Shown here: one piece after another, positions 8,505 through 13,691 of the stretch | Position numbering within the stretch: the first letter of the stretch is position 1 | How the letters are laid out: every line of letters begins with the position of its first letter | Source: a virus | Lineage: Duplodnaviria; Caudoviricetes | IMG/VR virus record: IMGVR_UViG_3300045015_000053 | Length of the DNA stretch: 64,000 bases | Direction: 5' to 3' (one strand) | The notes under the pieces: model-generated | What the model was told of the DNA's origin: nothing | Database searches by the model: none | Seen by the model: only the letters and a program-made list of their open reading frames with translations | Position numbers and translations under genes: made by a program

Positions 8505-8573
8505 GCCCCTGCCAGCGGTCTGGCTCTATCCCTCCGAAGGATGGTTGCGAAAGTCCGACTCTTTCCAGGGGTA
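8505..8573 (+). tRNA. non-canonical compact tRNA-like gene, Arg anticodon CCG
   Basis: GCCCCTG|CCAG-CGGT-CTGG|C|TCTATCC-CTCCGAA-GGATGGT|TGC|GAAAG-TCCGACT-CTTTC|CAGGGGT|A. Confidence 0.7.
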
Positions 8574-8577
8574 TTTT

Positions 8578-8610
8578 GTACCTCCGAAGCAATTTTTGCT
8601 TCGGAGGTAC
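8578..8610. repeat. 14-bp perfect inverted repeat covering the GGAGG upstream of the HNH gene
   Basis: GTACCTCCGAAGCA-ATTTT-TGCTTCGGAGGTAC. Confidence 0.85.
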
Positions 8611-8622
8611 TCGTTTACAGGT

Positions 8623-9099
8623 ATGAAAACATGCCACAAATGTTGCAAGTGCAAAGAACTTGAACAGTTCCCGATCAACCGTAGTCGCAAAGATGGTCGT
8701 AGTGAAACTTGTTTACTCTGTAAACGAGAGTACAATCGTATCCACTACAAAAACAATCGCTCTTATTACATGGACAAGGCTCAAGCGGCAAGAGATCGTT
8801 TGAAGGAGGCTTTTCGTCAATTGAAAAGCGAGATGAAATGCAGTCGTTGTCCAGAGACTCATGTTGCGGCTTTGCAATTCCATCATACCGATCCTTCTAA
8901 GAAGGAATTCTCCATTTCGATGGCGGTACAATCCAATTGGTCAAAAGACAGAATCATGAATGAGATTGCTAAGTGTGAAGTTTTGTGCGCCAATTGCCAC
9001 CTCAAACATCATTGGAGCGAACGGCATGCTTCCGACCTCCCGATGGAAGTTACGGCAAACGCTCATCAAGGTGTACCAGAGCAAGATCGAACACCTTGA
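8623..9099 (+). CDS. HNH homing endonuclease
   Basis: N-terminal CxxC Zn module; KCSRC...LQFHH...KCEVLCANCHLKHH. Confidence 0.85.
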   Translation: MKTCHKCCKCKELEQFPINRSRKDGRSETCLLCKREYNRIHYKNNRSYYMDKAQAARDRLKEAFRQLKSEMKCSRCPETHVAALQFHHTDPSKKEFSISMAVQSNWSKDRIMNEIAKCEVLCANCHLKHHWSERHASDLPMEVTANAHQGVPEQDRTP

Positions 9100-9313
9100 G
9101 GGCGGCATACGTTCGGCTCTGGGGATCGTCGGGGATCTGATCGACGCATCCGACTACGAAGGCGCGGCGAGCATTCAAGTCGTAATCGCCCAAGACGAGC
9201 AAACGCTCGCCGAGTTGAGAGAAAAACTTGAACTCGTCAGTGACGAGGACGAGTTCAACAAAATGGCAGACCACTTTGAGGGTGAAGTGGAAGAGGAACC
9301 GTTCCTCGAATAG
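9026..9313 (+). CDS. hypothetical protein
   Basis: ATG at 9026 overlapping the HNH 3' end in another frame. Confidence 0.55.
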   Translation: MLPTSRWKLRQTLIKVYQSKIEHLEGGIRSALGIVGDLIDASDYEGAASIQVVIAQDEQTLAELREKLELVSDEDEFNKMADHFEGEVEEEPFLE

Positions 9314-9315
9314 AA

Positions 9316-9627
9316 TTGGTCATGAGCAAACGCAAGCGAGCGACGAAGATGATCGGCAAGACGATGCGACTGGGCATCGTCGGCGATTGCCTCATCACTG
9401 GCGTCGAAGAGATCACCTACAGCAAGAAACGCTCTCCGTTCGAGGTTTGGGGCGGTCGGCGTGACGCCAAGACGGAACTCTGTTATACCGTCGAGCCGCT
9501 CGCGGAGATCCAAGATCATTTGAAGAACCCGTTTTACGGCTACCGCGAGAAGACTGGTGACTTCTTGGTCCGAGTTGTGGACCGCATCTACTACGAGGCC
9601 AAAGTCCATGAAGATTATCCACAGTGA
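9316..9627 (+). CDS. hypothetical protein
   Basis: 103-aa ORF. Confidence 0.6.
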   Translation: MVMSKRKRATKMIGKTMRLGIVGDCLITGVEEITYSKKRSPFEVWGGRRDAKTELCYTVEPLAEIQDHLKNPFYGYREKTGDFLVRVVDRIYYEAKVHEDYPQ

Positions 9628-11028: not shown

Positions 11029-12187
11029 AAGCCACGACGACCGCAATGGGTTCGTCCTGCCATCCGGCCGCGTTCAGAAGTTGGCCGTTGATGATCGGCA
11101 TGATGTGGGCTTCGTGTTCGGCTGTTTCCGAGATTGATGCTACGCCGAGTTTGATGTTGGAACCGGCACGCAGTTCTTTGACCGGCCTACCTCTCCAGGT
11201 TCGCGTCGGCGAGGTGTCCCTCTCGAAGCCACGGTCTTCGATCTCGAAGACGGTTTGAGGTAATGTGCGTTCAACGTCGTCGGCCGCTGATTGTGTAACG
11301 GCCTGAATCGCGACCGCGCTGCACTCCCTTCGACGCGGCAACACACTTTCTGTTACGCCCGGTGTTGCATCCGGTTTTTCGCCCGGCACAACAGCCGCGA
11401 GCAGCTTGGCGTTCTTCTTCATGTCTTCGATTACCGACAGGTCTGTGAGCCTGTAGTACGTCATGTTCATTGGCGGTTTTCTTTGGATCGGATACGAGTG
11501 GGCGAGTTCGGTTCCTTTCTTGGTTGTCGCCATGTAGAACTCGCACCGCGTGTAACTGTAACTGGACATGCTCTGCCAACGCTTCACAAGGTCGGGGAGG
11601 TTGGTTTCCAGTGTTTTGGGATTCATCAGGCAGATGCTGTGCGTGCCGTCTTTTCTGTAGTTGATTTGAACGCCGACCGTTTTCAACTTGCTGTCGTCGG
11701 AAAGGCCGAACTTTTCGGATTTATCGGTCAACGGCACCTCGAACCCGACTTTCGCACTCAGTTCTCGCGCCATCCTGATGAACTTTGCCCCGTGGTCTTC
11801 GCTCAAGTTGCCCGTGACGGCGAAATAGACGTGGATCATTTCGTGGACCAGAATTGCGTCCAATCCGGCTTCAGATTTCTTGAACGTGTTACTGATCTGC
11901 ATGCGGAGGGTTCCCTCCTTGATTTTTCCGCCGTGGTACTTGTCCTGCAATTTTCTGCGAACAAGCATCGGGTTCGGCAGGTTGTGCGGGTCCATGATCA
12001 CGGTAAACAATACGACGCCGCCGACGCCTTTGAGTTTGGCGTATTCGATGGGGATCTCAGGCAACTCGCCCCTGAAGAGGAGTTGGTTGTAGTGGGCGTA
12101 TTTCTTTTGGAGGTCGTACTCGGCGAAGTCGATGGCGGTGGCCGGTTTTGCTTCGACGGATTCGAGCCAATTTTTGAAGCTGAACAT
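11006..12187 (-). CDS. SprT-like zinc metalloprotease-domain protein, putative virion internal protein
   Basis: LQKKYAHYNQLLFRGELP...ILVHEMIHVY (SprT HExxH); N-terminus MFSFKNWLES; CTAAATA upstream. Confidence 0.75.
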   Translation of the reverse strand: MFSFKNWLESVEAKPATAIDFAEYDLQKKYAHYNQLLFRGELPEIPIEYAKLKGVGGVVLFTVIMDPHNLPNPMLVRRKLQDKYHGGKIKEGTLRMQISNTFKKSEAGLDAILVHEMIHVYFAVTGNLSEDHGAKFIRMARELSAKVGFEVPLTDKSEKFGLSDDSKLKTVGVQINYRKDGTHSICLMNPKTLETNLPDLVKRWQSMSSYSYTRCEFYMATTKKGTELAHSYPIQRKPPMNMTYYRLTDLSVIEDMKKNAKLLAAVVPGEKPDATPGVTESVLPRRRECSAVAIQAVTQSAADDVERTLPQTVFEIEDRGFERDTSPTRTWRGRPVKELRAGSNIKLGVASISETAEHEAHIMPIINGQLLNAAGWQDEPIAVVVAFKKKAGT

Positions 12188-12237
12188 TGAGGTTATTTAG
12201 CCGTCTGAATTTGGACCTTGAATTGTTAAATAGCTTC

Positions 12238-13125
12238 ATGGAAGAAGTTGAAATCCGTGGCGAATACTGGGTCCAGAACGGTCAGGTCGATTTCGCGGAC
12301 GGCGACATCGGCGATCAGAACCACGAAGGCATTGCCATTGACCACGTCGTCAGCAAATACGCTGATGAAGTTTCTAGTTTGGCAGACGAGTTGAATCTCG
12401 GTCACGAAGCACTCGATTCAGGCTACAACGGCTATGATTCCGAGGCCGTGTCGAAGCTTTTGTGGCGCGTTTACGAAACCTTGACTGTCGGTCGAGATCC
12501 CGACGACGAAGACGAACAGGGCGAAGAACGCGACCCCATTAGTGACGAAGAAGCCGACAGTTACATCATGAAAGAATTACGGTGTAACGCGGACGCCTAC
12601 CAGATTTTGCTCGGTCGTGGTGACGCAAGGCTTTACGTCATGAAGTACGAGGGGTGGATGGCGATCCGTTCGCACTCAATTGAGGTTTACGGGTATTCAG
12701 ATGCGATGCGTCCGCAAGTGGCGAGTGCCATCCAAGATGTGATTTACGAAGAACATAATTTGACCGACGACGAGTACGACCCAGAGACGGTTGAAATTGA
12801 TCTCCACGATCTCAAAAACAACAAATACTACAGTGTGACTTTGGCAGAGCTTTTGGCCCCACCAGCGATGCCGACGACTCAGACGCGGAACATTGACGAC
12901 GGCAAGAACGCTTACACTGGGAAGTTGAAAGACACCTCCACGGCAAGTTCACGCCCGGATCGCGCCGAGAGTGATCCGCAGTGGAACAAGAACAAGAGCG
13001 TGATGGGCAAATGGAACAGAGCCGTTAAGGACGTGACGGGTCAAGACCTGTGGCGTGGCACGTCGGAATGGCGTGTTACCTTCGGGGAATGGCTTGCGGA
13101 AAAGCATCCAGATCTACTAGAATAA
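12238..13125 (+). CDS. hypothetical acidic protein, putative late gene
   Basis: TTAAATA at 12226 just before the ATG; C-terminal TFGEWLAE motif. Confidence 0.7.
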   Translation: MEEVEIRGEYWVQNGQVDFADGDIGDQNHEGIAIDHVVSKYADEVSSLADELNLGHEALDSGYNGYDSEAVSKLLWRVYETLTVGRDPDDEDEQGEERDPISDEEADSYIMKELRCNADAYQILLGRGDARLYVMKYEGWMAIRSHSIEVYGYSDAMRPQVASAIQDVIYEEHNLTDDEYDPETVEIDLHDLKNNKYYSVTLAELLAPPAMPTTQTRNIDDGKNAYTGKLKDTSTASSRPDRAESDPQWNKNKSVMGKWNRAVKDVTGQDLWRGTSEWRVTFGEWLAEKHPDLLE

Positions 13126-13171
13126 AATTCGACGCGGGATTGGTATATCGGCTGTGCCGAAGATTTCCGAC

Positions 13172-13243
13172 GCGAGCGTAACTCAATGGTAGAGTGCTTG
13201 CCTTCCAAGCAAGCTGTTGTGGGTTCGAGTCCCATCGCTCGCT
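13172..13243 (+). tRNA. tRNA-Gly(UCC)
   Basis: acceptor GCGAGCG/CGCTCGC, anticodon arm CTTGC-CTTCCAA-GCAAG, T-loop TTCGAGT. Confidence 0.92.
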
Positions 13244-13278
13244 CTTGCCTTCCAAATTTGACAAATTTGGAAGGCAAG
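13244..13278. repeat. 17-bp perfect inverted repeat abutting the tRNA 3' end
   Basis: CTTGCCTTCCAAATTTG-A-CAAATTTGGAAGGCAAG. Confidence 0.9.
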
Positions 13279-13292
13279 TTGCTAAATACGGC

Positions 13293-13691
13293 ATGGTTAA
13301 AAAGTGCTGTATGTGTAAGCTGGATAAACTGCTCGATGCTTTCAAAAGCAATCCGCGACGACATGACGGATTGCAATCTCAATGTGCTGAATGCCACGCC
13401 GAGTATCGTCGTAAACATTACCTCGCTAACCGCGAGAAGTACATCAAGAAAGCAGCAAGCTGGAAGAAGAATTTCCAGGCTTGGTGGAAAGAGTACAAGA
13501 AGCAGTTCAAGTGTTCACGCTGCCCAGAACAACACCCTGCGTGCATCCAATTTCATCATCCCAATGACGACAAAGAGTTAGGTGTGTCGCAATGGGTTGG
13601 CAGAGGTGATAAAGAACGGGTTTTGGAAGAGATTGCCAAGTGCATCCCTCTTTGTGGCAACTGTCACGCTAAAGAGCATTGGAAAGACTAA
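13293..13691 (+). CDS. HNH homing endonuclease
   Basis: KCCMC...DGLQSQCAEC; KCSRC...IQFHHP...KCIPLCGNCHAKEH; CTAAATA at 13282. Confidence 0.85.
   Translation: MVKKCCMCKLDKLLDAFKSNPRRHDGLQSQCAECHAEYRRKHYLANREKYIKKAASWKKNFQAWWKEYKKQFKCSRCPEQHPACIQFHHPNDDKELGVSQWVGRGDKERVLEEIAKCIPLCGNCHAKEHWKD

Follow-up and report, generated by a model that had tools for sequence, protein, structure and literature searches.

What does a palindrome do between a tRNA gene and an HNH endonuclease gene when its arms repeat the anticodon loop of that same tRNA? The question is raised twice by the window studied here, a stretch of 64,000 nucleotides from the 188-kb record of a lake-water phage (Caudoviricetes, IMGVR_UViG_3300045015_000053), in which the original prediction had noticed two tRNA - palindrome - HNH cassettes. 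Both palindromes are present (Table 1), each holding two inverted copies of the 7-nt anticodon loop of the cassette's own tRNA, and both cassettes look like mobile units that combine a replacement tRNA with the palindrome and an HNH gene. They had been described as unrelated in sequence, a term to be restricted to the palindromes because the two HNH proteins are paralogues with 43% identity.

Organization of the two cassettes

The Gly cassette lies inside a broken resident tRNA-Gly(UCC) gene. The first 9 nt of the 5' fragment are those of the 5' end of the phage's other tRNA-Gly(UCC), and the fragment stops 1 nt past the anticodon loop, exactly where the replacement tRNA starts. The 3' fragment begins immediately past the stop codon of HNH gene 2 and its ATCCCGC segment is the exact complement of GCGGGAT at 13134-13140. 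As predicted, the 17-bp repeat opens with a copy of an anticodon stem and loop: its first 12 nt are identical to positions 13197-13208 of the replacement tRNA (CTTGC CTTCCAA), and they fit this tRNA, not the broken resident (GAAGA TTTCCGA). The sense heptamer CTTCCAA occupies positions 13249-13255 and its antisense copy TTGGAAG positions 13267-13273.

In the Arg cassette the probable 5' remnant of an older gene breaks off at CTCC within the anticodon loop. Its segment 8472-8495 is collinear with the D arm-to-anticodon region of the gene at 8505 (18 of 24 positions identical), a local alignment score matched by 0.4% of 2000 shuffles; the 3' partner of this remnant was searched for and not found. 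The replacement gene itself receives no tRNA call from ARAGORN and none from Rfam (E up to 10). Its acceptor stem is 7 bp long, its anticodon stem closes a 7-nt loop (U33, CCG, A37) and its T stem has 5 bp with G53-C61. It aligns over its full length with the window's two short-D-arm tRNA-Arg genes called by ARAGORN (6398 and 23162), and has an odd T loop in common with the one at 6398. The Arg(CCG)-like assignment made originally, although without a call from either program, is backed by this alignment, and the gene is probably a non-canonical tRNA. The adjacent inverted repeat is 15 bp long and not 14 bp as first reported. It carries the loop copy that had been noted, CCTCCGAAG at 8581-8589 being identical to 8531-8539, with the sense heptamer CTCCGAA at 8582-8588 and the antisense TTCGGAG at 8600-8606, 18 nt apart from start to start. 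The GGAGG seen before the HNH gene does lie in the 3' arm (8603-8607) but is merely the complement of the loop copy; since it is 15 nt ahead of the ATG at 8623, it is too distant for a good ribosome-binding site.

The phage encodes nine HNH paralogues. The product of HNH gene 1 combines a zinc ribbon, a long helix and an HNH core, and retains the invariant CxxC, HH and CxNCH motifs. The AlphaFold model of HNH 2 (pLDDT 96) shows a zinc ribbon (residues 1-31), a single helix (32-69) and the HNH core (70-132).

Table 1. Features of the Arg and Gly cassettes (positions in the window).
Feature	Position	Strand	Details
Probable 5' remnant of older Arg(CCG)-type tRNA gene	8465-8495	+	acceptor-like GGTCACA, D hairpin, anticodon stem
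Probable non-canonical tRNA-Arg(CCG)-like gene, replacement tRNA of the cassette	8505-8573	+	anticodon loop CTCCGAA 8532-8538
Perfect 15-bp palindrome	8578-8610		arms 8578-8592 / 8596-8610
HNH endonuclease gene 1, 158 aa	8623-9099	+	PHROG 2255 'HNH endonuclease', E 1.7e-31
5' fragment of broken resident tRNA-Gly(UCC)	13134-13171	+	GCGGGAT acceptor, D arm, stem GAAGA, loop TTTCCGA, +1 nt
Intact replacement tRNA-Gly(UCC)	13172-13244	+	ARAGORN; Rfam tRNA 71.1 bits
Perfect 17-bp palindrome	13244-13278		arms 13244-13260 / 13262-13278
Degenerate copy of TG-n-TATAAT-N5-ATG motif	13280-13295	+	TGCTAAATA, then CGGC, then ATG
HNH endonuclease gene 2, 132 aa	13293-13691	+	PHROG 2255, E 2e-25
3' fragment of broken resident tRNA-Gly	13692-13706	+	T-loop end, T-stem 3' strand, acceptor ATCCCGC, discriminator

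The palindrome follows the anticodon loop

Throughout the 188-kb record, the exact antisense loop heptamer is found in five of the seven tRNA-to-HNH spacers and at none of the 44 other tRNAs (hypergeometric p about 9e-6, computed by hand), and the palindrome co-varies with the target tRNA across the paralogues of this genome through five different heptamers. The same design is found in ten further cassettes from unrelated phages. The comparison with other phages covered 125 non-redundant HNH loci. In 11 of 69 tests the 120-nt HNH leader contains the nearest flanking tRNA's loop, whereas 300 control draws with other loops averaged 1.8 and peaked at 6; both orientations are present in the leader 6 times (control mean 0.44). 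Leader hairpins near tRNAs share at least 7 nt with a nearby tRNA in 14 of 34 cases (control 5.5), and 11 of these 14 match on the anticodon loop (control 2.3). The original prediction that such a match is improbable by chance is confirmed by the record and by the excess over controls: the palindrome tracks the neighbouring anticodon in at least 15 independent cassettes, and the pattern, which we did not find described in the literature searched, recurs in unrelated phages and is real. The outcome named originally as part of a refutation, palindromes that fail to follow the neighbouring anticodon in homologous loci, was checked for and is not what the loci show.

The 15 palindromes have all their two copies spaced by 17-20 nt, and most share with the tRNA the heptamer only. 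Their arms reach past it, with flanks that vary by cassette but still pair with each other. Of the four arm mismatches three are G.T wobbles, and in three imperfect palindromes it is the antisense copy that matches exactly. A few palindromes (L089, L105) have the same geometry but copy the neighbouring tRNA's T loop or T stem. Many family members adjoin tRNAs without a palindrome, and some intact tRNAs without an HNH have a single extra copy of the loop heptamer 10-14 nt upstream.

Insertion at tRNA genes and specificity of the HNH proteins

Resident tRNA stubs end at or just past the anticodon loop in both window cassettes and in loci L077 and L034, and 3' stubs begin in the T arm. These end points, like the single heptamer copies upstream of HNH-less tRNAs, speak for the palindromes being functionless scars, either remains of the broken target tRNA left where the cassette inserted or the result of a break in the anticodon loop mended by fold-back repair. 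We consider such an origin unlikely. No 5' arm runs on from a tRNA 5' stub; L077 has a complete palindrome of its own next to the stub, with an 11-nt spacer in between, and in the window a whole replacement tRNA is found between stub and palindrome. The palindrome centres are non-tRNA sequence, and neither the constant spacing nor the position relative to the promoter is expected of a scar.

The HNH proteins group by the identity of their tRNA: there is a Gly(UCC) clade (support 100/98), besides clades for Leu(UAA), Met and Lys. The more identical two proteins are, the more often they have the adjacent anticodon in common (from 3% up to 61-100%), and the closest relatives of HNH 2 in other phages also adjoin tRNA-Gly(UCC). 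Since the closest homologue, in L104 (61% identical), lies next to a tRNA-Gly(UCC) without a palindrome, the palindrome is an accessory and not what sets the target; most cellular members likewise keep the tRNA association without it. On these sequence relationships, specificity is attributable to the protein. They weigh against a hairpin acting as specificity element, whose heptamer, as DNA or RNA, would base-pair with the tRNA gene carrying the matching loop and guide the HNH to it, in a way comparable to the guidance of TnpA by IS200/IS605 ends. The co-variation across paralogues and the exactness of the antisense copy in imperfect palindromes are in line with such guidance; the heptamer is however buried in a perfect stem and, given the predicted promoter, the palindrome would lie outside the nuclease's own mRNA. 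We judge this guide role quite improbable.

PacI and Hpy99I are small zinc HNH restriction enzymes that work as homodimers on palindromic DNA and cut short contiguous palindromes. The cassette HNHs are similar to them in size, in having two Cys4 zinc sites and in their beta-beta-alpha-metal core, with weak matches to this class that stay below significance (Hpy99I sequence E 0.033; Foldseek E 2.4); PacI and Hpy99I, unlike the cassette HNHs, have no link with tRNA genes. A homodimer model of the HNH scored 0.42, the best of three controls scoring 0.00, with 100% contact agreement between runs and a partner pLDDT of at least 86. Among 30 proteins solved as one-chain pairs 20 reach that mark, and among 23 solved as single chains one does, counts that are only a rough guide because the alignment was one made for this analysis. 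The score may reflect solved structures of small dimeric zinc HNH enzymes (PacI, Hpy99I) that the predictor already knew.

Possible hairpins in the transcript

One of the two mechanisms proposed originally was a switch within a tRNA-plus-trailer transcript, formed by pairing between the antisense arm and the pre-tRNA's anticodon arm, so that nuclease translation would depend on tRNA processing. The complementarity between the 3' arm and the anticodon arm does extend over 12 nt (Gly) and 9 nt (Arg). Cloverleaf plus hairpin nevertheless folds at -53.8 and -52.5 kcal/mol in the two cassettes, against -34.9 and -28.2 kcal/mol with the 5' arm blocked, and the alternative fold is 19-24 kcal/mol worse; in the Arg case the proposed pairing fails to form even with the 5' arm blocked, and in the Gly case the centroid equals the MFE structure. 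The matching tRNA may moreover be upstream, downstream (L030, L077, L079, L086, L101) or divergent relative to the HNH gene, as in L070 where it is on the opposite strand, an arrangement that fits a DNA site and not a cis RNA element. This variable position and the folding penalty argue against the switch, which we regard as highly implausible.

In early transcripts, T4-type hairpins mask the start codon and ribosome-binding site of genes for homing endonucleases. The cassettes resemble them in having a stable hairpin directly upstream of the nuclease gene and a promoter set so that its transcript would lack the 5' arm. The analogy, drawn in the original prediction, misfits both window cases because their start codons and ribosome-binding sites are outside the stems; T4 hairpins, in addition, are not made from target-gene sequence.

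The main rival to the operator reading developed below is still a purely structural role. In transcripts reading through from the strongly transcribed tRNA, the palindrome would act only as a nucleic-acid hairpin and insulate the nuclease gene, as the T4 silencing hairpins do, by forming a block or a site of processing (for instance by RNase III). Its anticodon-loop sequence would merely come from the copying of an adjacent piece of tRNA and be read by nothing. The window arms are perfect over 15-17 bp and very stable as RNA (-25.1 kcal/mol for the Arg hairpin alone, -21.4 kcal/mol for Gly), hairpins lie 0-8 nt from the tRNA 3' end in this genome, and in its Trp cassette a second hairpin encloses the HNH ATG. 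Perfect arms whose flanks vary while remaining complementary, together with the G.T wobbles, look like the outcome of selection for a hairpin and not only for protein half-sites. T4 SegB and I-TevI are precedents for hairpin silencing (PMC2330249). Random copying from a 72-nt tRNA is however unlikely to yield the 7-nt loop in 11 of 14 cases, and the exact heptamer would not be expected to persist across unrelated phages while its flanks change. A purely structural role also leaves the fixed 17-20 nt spacing unexplained, as well as palindromes whose matching tRNA is downstream or on the other strand; in the two window cassettes the stem ends 15 and 13 nt ahead of the start codon, and a T run is lacking. 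We grant this hairpin an appreciable but clearly limited likelihood.

Promoter elements and a putative operator

Of the nine HNH paralogues, five carry TATAAT 5-6 nt ahead of the ATG, and wherever TATAAT-N4-8-ATG marks the start of an ORF in this genome, that ORF is an HNH; the TATAAT-N5-ATG arrangement is specific to the cassettes. The CTAAATA motif noted after the Gly palindrome is contained in the degenerate element at 13280-13295, presumed to be an extended -10 and leaderless start, where a simple sigma-70 scan called no promoter. The consensus -35 hexamer TTGACA lies at the palindrome centre in the Gly cassette (13258-13263) and in L040, and a CTAAATA-type -10 is found between the half-sites in L070 and L086.

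I-TevI, a GIY-YIG enzyme, has at its own promoter an operator that resembles its homing site and to which it binds. We favour, with a probability of roughly 45%, a comparable role for the palindrome, in which two inverted copies of the recognition sequence would cover the cassette's own promoter. This was the other mechanism of the original prediction, an HNH that targets anticodon DNA and an autorepression operator, and it gains support at the sequence level from the tracking of the loop, the -35/-10 position, the clades and the stubs ending at the loop. The shared logic would be that a copy of the recognition sequence over the nuclease promoter limits synthesis of a dangerous enzyme. I-TevI is however an intron-encoded GIY-YIG monomer with a single non-palindromic operator, whereas the cassettes encode free-standing HNH proteins and have two inverted half-sites 17-20 bp apart as putative operator. 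Several observations go against an operator. The Gly copy fits the cassette's own replacement tRNA and, with the heptamer alone as target, cutting would be expected in this tRNA as well as in the other tRNA-Gly(UCC) of the phage. The promoter elements are degenerate in both window cassettes and the simple scan calls neither, short HNH forms without zinc ribbon (L034, L060, L070) also have palindromes, and many tRNA-adjacent members have none.

A proposed mobile unit specific for one tRNA

T4 SegB (GIY-YIG) and the T5 HNH enzymes F-TflI, F-TflII as well as F-TflIV are free-standing endonucleases encoded in phage tRNA clusters; SegB cuts the tRNA-Asn gene region of T2L, flanking markers are inherited through intronless homing, and it has been suggested that a hairpin preceding the start keeps expression down (PMC2330249; PMC10644984). 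The cassettes share with them a nuclease gene between tRNA genes and, presumably, a target in a tRNA gene. They differ in carrying their own replacement tRNA within the wreck of the old gene and in the upstream palindrome, where the anticodon loop of the partner tRNA is present as two inverted copies, a combination that we did not find described for these four enzymes in the literature searched.

Under the favoured operator reading, each cassette would be a selfish mobile unit in which a replacement tRNA gene and a palindrome accompany the gene for a small free-standing HNH homing endonuclease, specific for tRNA genes of one anticodon. The nuclease would read the DNA of the anticodon loop, the sole part common to all genes for that tRNA, and break the resident tRNA gene just 3' of it. 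With a cassette-bearing genome as template for repair, the unit would then be copied in and the two ends of the old gene would stay on either side as stubs. The nuclease, probably dimeric, would bind without productive cutting to the two inverted heptamers of the palindrome, 17-20 bp apart over the -35 to -10 region of the cassette promoter, and so limit its own synthesis as I-TevI does at its operator, while the unit's own tRNA would maintain the supply of the phage.

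Organisation of the Gly and Arg cassettes

The window corresponds to bases 105123-169122 of a 188-kb virus record (CheckV completeness 37%) that is present in lake-water metagenomes; no RNA sequencing run is listed among those containing it. It carries two cassettes, each composed of a replacement tRNA gene, a palindrome and a gene for an HNH protein. The palindromes, the loop copies and the downstream HNH genes are all located, and the original prediction that the palindrome after each of the two tRNAs copies that tRNA's own anticodon loop is therefore correct, with small corrections only. 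The first 12 nt of the Gly palindrome reproduce the anticodon stem and loop of tRNA-Gly(UCC) (13197-13208).

Features of the two cassettes, and single heptamer copies found elsewhere in the record (G000) and in a homologous locus (L084)
Feature	Position	Strand	Remarks
Probable Arg 5' stub	8472-8495	+	aligns with the D arm-to-anticodon part of the gene at 8505; ends inside the loop
tRNA-Arg(CCG)-like gene	8505-8573	+	acceptor, anticodon and T arms; loop CUCCGAA
Arg palindrome	8578-8610		perfect 15-bp inverted repeat; includes CCTCCGAAG of the anticodon loop
HNH 1	8623-9099	+	follows the Arg palindrome
Gly 5' stub	13134-13171	+	5' part of another tRNA-Gly(UCC) gene; D arm, anticodon stem, loop TTTCCGA
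Replacement tRNA-Gly(UCC)	13172-13244	+	called by ARAGORN and Rfam
Gly palindrome	13244-13260 / 13262-13278		perfect 17-bp inverted repeat
HNH 2	13293-13691	+	follows the Gly palindrome
Gly 3' stub	13692-13706	+	T-arm end and acceptor strand; directly after the HNH 2 stop codon
Lone heptamer copies	G000:C1:68376 and 67714; L084:1398		

The Gly cassette is flanked by fragments of an older tRNA gene. The 5' stub shares its first 9 nt exactly with the second tRNA-Gly(UCC) of the phage and breaks off 1 nt past the anticodon loop; the acceptor strand of the 3' stub is exactly complementary to the 5' stub. The two stubs match, so the tRNA-palindrome-HNH unit sits within a broken resident tRNA-Gly, and replaces the stretch of this gene between its anticodon loop and its T loop. 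The Arg cassette is preceded by a probable 5' stub of an older Arg-type tRNA (shuffle p 0.004 for the alignment); a 3' counterpart was not found downstream of HNH 1. In an Rfam scan of 8200-8700 and 13100-13760 at a permissive threshold, neither the Arg-like gene nor the tRNA fragments matched a tRNA model, and the matches that did appear were meaningless miRNA-like hairpins. The replacement tRNA-Gly (13171-13245) is about 85% identical (11 differences in 75) to high-depth lake-metagenome contigs of other organisms, and so is similar to a cellular tRNA-Gly(UCC) that is common in this water. The longest inverted repeat of the window, a perfect 27-bp repeat with a 7-nt centre at 60592-60652, is unrelated to the HNH cassettes.

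ARAGORN does not call the Arg-like gene, and the Rfam tRNA model does not match it up to E 10. It displays the hallmarks of a tRNA, with a 7-bp acceptor stem, an anticodon arm with U33 and a purine at position 37, and a 5-bp T stem closed by a G-C pair (G53-C61), together with a short D arm and a C at T-loop position 55. It aligns with both short-D-arm tRNA-Arg genes of the window; one of them, the tRNA-Arg that ARAGORN calls at 6398, is a homologue with the same T loop. The three tRNA-Arg-type genes of the window, 6398-6465 (UCG), 8505-8573 (CCG) and 23162-23231 (UCU), all have a short D arm directly after the acceptor stem and an anticodon placed at position 30; T-loop position 55 is C rather than U in two of them, and none attains the Rfam tRNA threshold.

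The HNH proteins

HNH 1 and HNH 2 are paralogues with 43% identity that belong to PHROG 2255, annotated as HNH endonuclease (E 1.7e-31 and 2e-25), with further matches to PHROG 3106 (E 2e-23 and 3e-19). The family match rests on PHROGs because Pfam-A gives no HNH match for either protein at E up to 1. Residues C74, C77, H89, C121, N123, C124 and H125 are invariant across 43 sequences, and H88 and H129 nearly so. Besides the family match, the proteins thus have the features of HNH enzymes, namely the catalytic His-His, Asn and His and the zinc-binding CxxC pair around a beta-beta-alpha core, modelled with strands at 85-88 and 118-121 and a helix at 122-131. The AlphaFold model (pLDDT 96) has three parts: a zinc ribbon, a single helix of 38 residues, and the HNH core. 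Foldseek searches of the PDB with this model return no significant neighbour (nothing below E 0.27), and the weak matches are to the dimeric zinc HNH enzymes Hpy99I, the one weak match of a profile search of PDB sequences, and PacI.

The homodimer model scores 0.42, against 0.00 for the best of three controls, and so reaches a mark attained by 20 of 30 proteins solved as same-chain pairs and by 1 of 23 solved as single chains, counts that hold only roughly here as a custom alignment was used. All contacts (100%) agree between runs and partner pLDDT is at least 86. The result may reflect memory of PacI-like dimers by the predictor. A "molecular ruler", in which the zinc ribbon reads the heptamer (the 7-nt anticodon loop sequence) and the 38-residue helix sets the cutting distance, was dropped because short family members lacking the zinc ribbon have the same palindromes.

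A third HNH paralogue of the window (26954-27661, 235 aa) is devoid of the N-terminal zinc ribbon but extended by a long stretch at its C-terminus. The gene shares the start motif, here TATAAT-ACGTC-ATG, and is preceded by a small palindrome, TGCAAAA / TTTTGCA, with no tRNA within 700 nt; one of the arms and the reverse complement of TTTGCAA, the loop of tRNA-Ala(UGC), overlap.

Palindromes follow the anticodon loop of the partner tRNA

The whole record codes for 50 tRNAs called by ARAGORN and 9 genes of this HNH family, which yield ten family matches because one gene has two HNH domains. Seven tRNAs lie directly before an HNH gene. The spacer contains an exact reverse complement of the tRNA's own anticodon loop in five of them, Gln(CUG), Trp(CCA), Ile(GAU), Arg(CCG)-like and Gly(UCC), against 0 of 44 other tRNAs (hypergeometric p ~9e-6, calculated by hand).

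Homologous HNH ORFs were searched by profile in IMG/VR, leaving 125 loci after removal of near-duplicates. In these loci, which are from other phages, the 120-nt HNH leader, the DNA just upstream of the gene, contains the loop of the closest flanking tRNA in 11 of 69 tests; controls with the loops of other tRNAs average 1.8 and never exceed 6 in 300 draws. Both orientations of the loop are present in 6 cases (control mean 0.44). In 14 of 34 leader hairpins, a stretch of 7 nt or more is found again in a nearby tRNA (control 5.5), and in 11 of these 14 it lies on the anticodon loop (control 2.3). Altogether 15 palindromes carry the loop as two inverted heptamers, five from this genome and ten from other phages, with start-to-start spacing of 17-20 nt in every one; they cover Gly, Arg (CCG, UCU), Ile, Gln (CUG, UUG), Trp and Lys (UUU, CUU). 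The copying of the anticodon loop is thus not due to chance and not confined to the two cases of the window.

Four further loop-gap-inverted-loop pairs from a whole-genome scan were judged to be chance occurrences, being located inside coding regions with no nuclease nearby. Searches with the Ile and Arg HNH paralogues retrieved 2 loci and 1 locus only. The latter, L183, is the sole relative of the Arg HNH and has a single TTCCGAA in its leader with no tRNA-Arg nearby, which is only a hint.

Two palindromes of the usual geometry copy another part of the upstream tRNA: the arms of L105:1157-1195 correspond to the T-stem/acceptor junction (CTCCTGGT) and those of L089:1413-1441 to an unusual T loop (TGTTCAA). 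They fit nucleases with other recognition points in tRNA genes. Lone extra heptamer copies are also found 10-14 nt upstream of intact tRNA-Gly(UCC) and tRNA-Lys(UUU) genes without an adjoining HNH gene, and may be what remains after a cassette has lost its nuclease.

Insertion in tRNA genes

Remnants of the target flank the cassettes, 5' and 3' fragments of one tRNA-Gly and a probable 5' remnant for Arg, and such insertion at a target gene with flanking remnants, expected of a free-standing homing endonuclease, recurs in the paralogues and in other phages. In L077, the 5' half of a tRNA-Lys(UUU) ending exactly at the loop is followed by 11 nt, a complete palindrome, the HNH gene and an intact, different tRNA-Lys. 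L034 has a diverged tRNA-Trp 5' half, and 3' stubs beginning in the T arm are found after the Trp and Ile HNH genes of this genome and after that of L060. Several HNH genes of this genome stand between two tRNAs for the same amino acid. This placement suggests that repeated invasion by cassettes built up the tRNA set of the phage, and the sporadic spread of homologues through tRNA arrays of unrelated phages suggests mobility.

A search with the flanking gene (12187-13122) for a relative lacking the cassette retrieved no relative of this gene, and no joint across either cassette, hence no allele without it, was detected in contigs of four lake-water metagenome runs, where cover was thin.

Outside the window, at G000:C1:56000-95000, about 44 tRNA genes form a dense array with six HNH genes interspersed among them, and the tRNA pairs on either side of several of these HNH genes (Gln/Gln, Glu/Glu, Asp/Asp) are divergent in sequence. 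A tRNA-Lys(UUU)-like gene without ARAGORN call (G000:C1:67724-67797) lies just before the called tRNA-Lys at 67804; by eye it forms a full cloverleaf with T loop GGGTGCGATTCCC.

The bacterial and archaeal HNH loci have a tRNA within 1.2 kb in 73 of 80 cases, and the heptamer palindrome was found in none of the 80. These cellular members (L184-L263) are short HNH forms at fixed places in tRNA clusters: many Pyrinomonadaceae, for example, have the order Tyr - Gly(UCC) - HNH - Thr(GGU), Solirubrobacterales have Pro(GGG) - HNH - Gly(UCC), and DPANN archaea have Arg(CCU) - HNH.

Role of the palindrome

The identity of the heptamer with the anticodon loop of the partner tRNA, at which the stubs of broken tRNAs also end, can be explained in three ways: by a protein that reads DNA, by base pairing with the tRNA, or by copying without any reader. 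The cis RNA switch, one option of the original prediction, in which the antisense arm pairs with the pre-tRNA anticodon loop, is disfavoured, the matching tRNA being downstream of the HNH gene in L030, L077, L079, L086 and L101 and divergent from it in L070, and the alternative fold being 19-24 kcal/mol worse. An origin of the palindromes as junction scars is disfavoured, since in no case does the 5' arm run on from a tRNA stub.

We favour a DNA-reading protein, with the two inverted recognition heptamers forming an operator like that of I-TevI, whose autorepression is a known precedent for a nuclease that represses itself. The conserved heptamer, the fixed spacing, the position over putative promoter elements, the T-arm copies and the dimer model lead us to this reading, to which we give a probability of roughly 45%. 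The heptamer is conserved while the sequence on either side of it changes. The Gly palindrome and that of L040 are centred on a consensus TTGACA, and a CTAAATA-type box lies between the half-sites in L070 and L086. TG-n-TAAATA is found 4 nt before the HNH 2 ATG, and the TATAAT-N5-ATG arrangement of the paralogues is specific to cassettes, suggesting a leaderless transcript that would begin just past the palindrome. The CTAAATA motif predicted after the Gly palindrome is present and reads as a degenerate copy of this cassette -10 motif. A consensus scan of both window leaders called neither promoter nor terminator, and the promoters of both window cassettes are weak by consensus. One feature fits the operator poorly: the 12-nt Gly copy is that of the cassette's own tRNA and not of the broken resident tRNA-Gly.

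The main rival, which we hold to be rather unlikely as the whole explanation, is a purely structural hairpin. The arms are perfect and exceed the heptamer in length, their flanks co-vary between cassettes, and G.T wobbles account for 3 of 4 arm mismatches, which argues for selection on a hairpin as well, in RNA or single-stranded DNA. The operator and structural roles are not exclusive.

The hairpins of the two window cassettes differ from the silencing hairpins described for T4 endonuclease genes (PMC2330249), in which the ribosome binding site and/or start codon is in the stem. The Gly stem ends at 13278 with the ATG at 13293, and the Arg stem at 8610 with the ATG at 8623 and GGAGG 15 nt upstream; only the Trp paralogue, outside the window, has such a feature.

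Location of specificity

In a maximum-likelihood tree of 53 HNH proteins adjoining a tRNA, the supported clades follow tRNA identity. The Gly(UCC) clade (support 100/98) unites HNH 2, L104 and an AT-rich phage group with the tRNA on the opposite strand; other clades are linked to Leu(UAA), Met and Lys. The adjacent anticodon is the same in 3% of pairs below 30% protein identity, in 61% at 50-70% and in 100% above. The L104 protein, 61% identical to HNH 2, adjoins tRNA-Gly(UCC) without a palindrome, and the tRNA association therefore does not need one. These sequence comparisons point to the protein as the seat of specificity, with the palindrome in an accessory, regulatory role.

A quite different role, which we consider very improbable, is that of a swappable address label: the heptamer, in a DNA or RNA hairpin bound by the ~130-residue HNH protein, would guide the nuclease to the tRNA gene with the matching loop. 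If true, retargeting would require a change of the palindrome alone, the presence in one phage of at least 5 paralogues aimed at five different tRNAs would be explained, and the proteins would be among the smallest nucleic-acid-guided nucleases, of interest for genome engineering.

Implications for phage tRNA clusters

Since T4 and T5, phage tRNA clusters have been known to contain homing endonuclease genes; to our knowledge, their target choice, carrier protection and self-control are poorly understood. Published examples are SegB of T4 (PMC2330249) and the F-Tfl enzymes of T5 (PMC10644984). The literature searched describes neither a palindrome carrying the anticodon loop of a partner tRNA nor a nuclease cassette that comes with its own replacement tRNA. 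The cassettes provide a candidate second case of autorepression by a homing endonuclease through a target copy, this time in another nuclease family. They also obey a rule that can be read from the genome sequence, the palindrome before the nuclease gene naming the anticodon of the tRNA tied to it, which predicts the recognition sequence of many uncharacterised nucleases. Cassette anatomy gives evidence of a mobile unit that brings a spare tRNA and lands inside an old one, and such a unit offers a mechanism by which large phages may come to have dozens of tRNA genes, 50 in this record, including duplicate isoacceptors.
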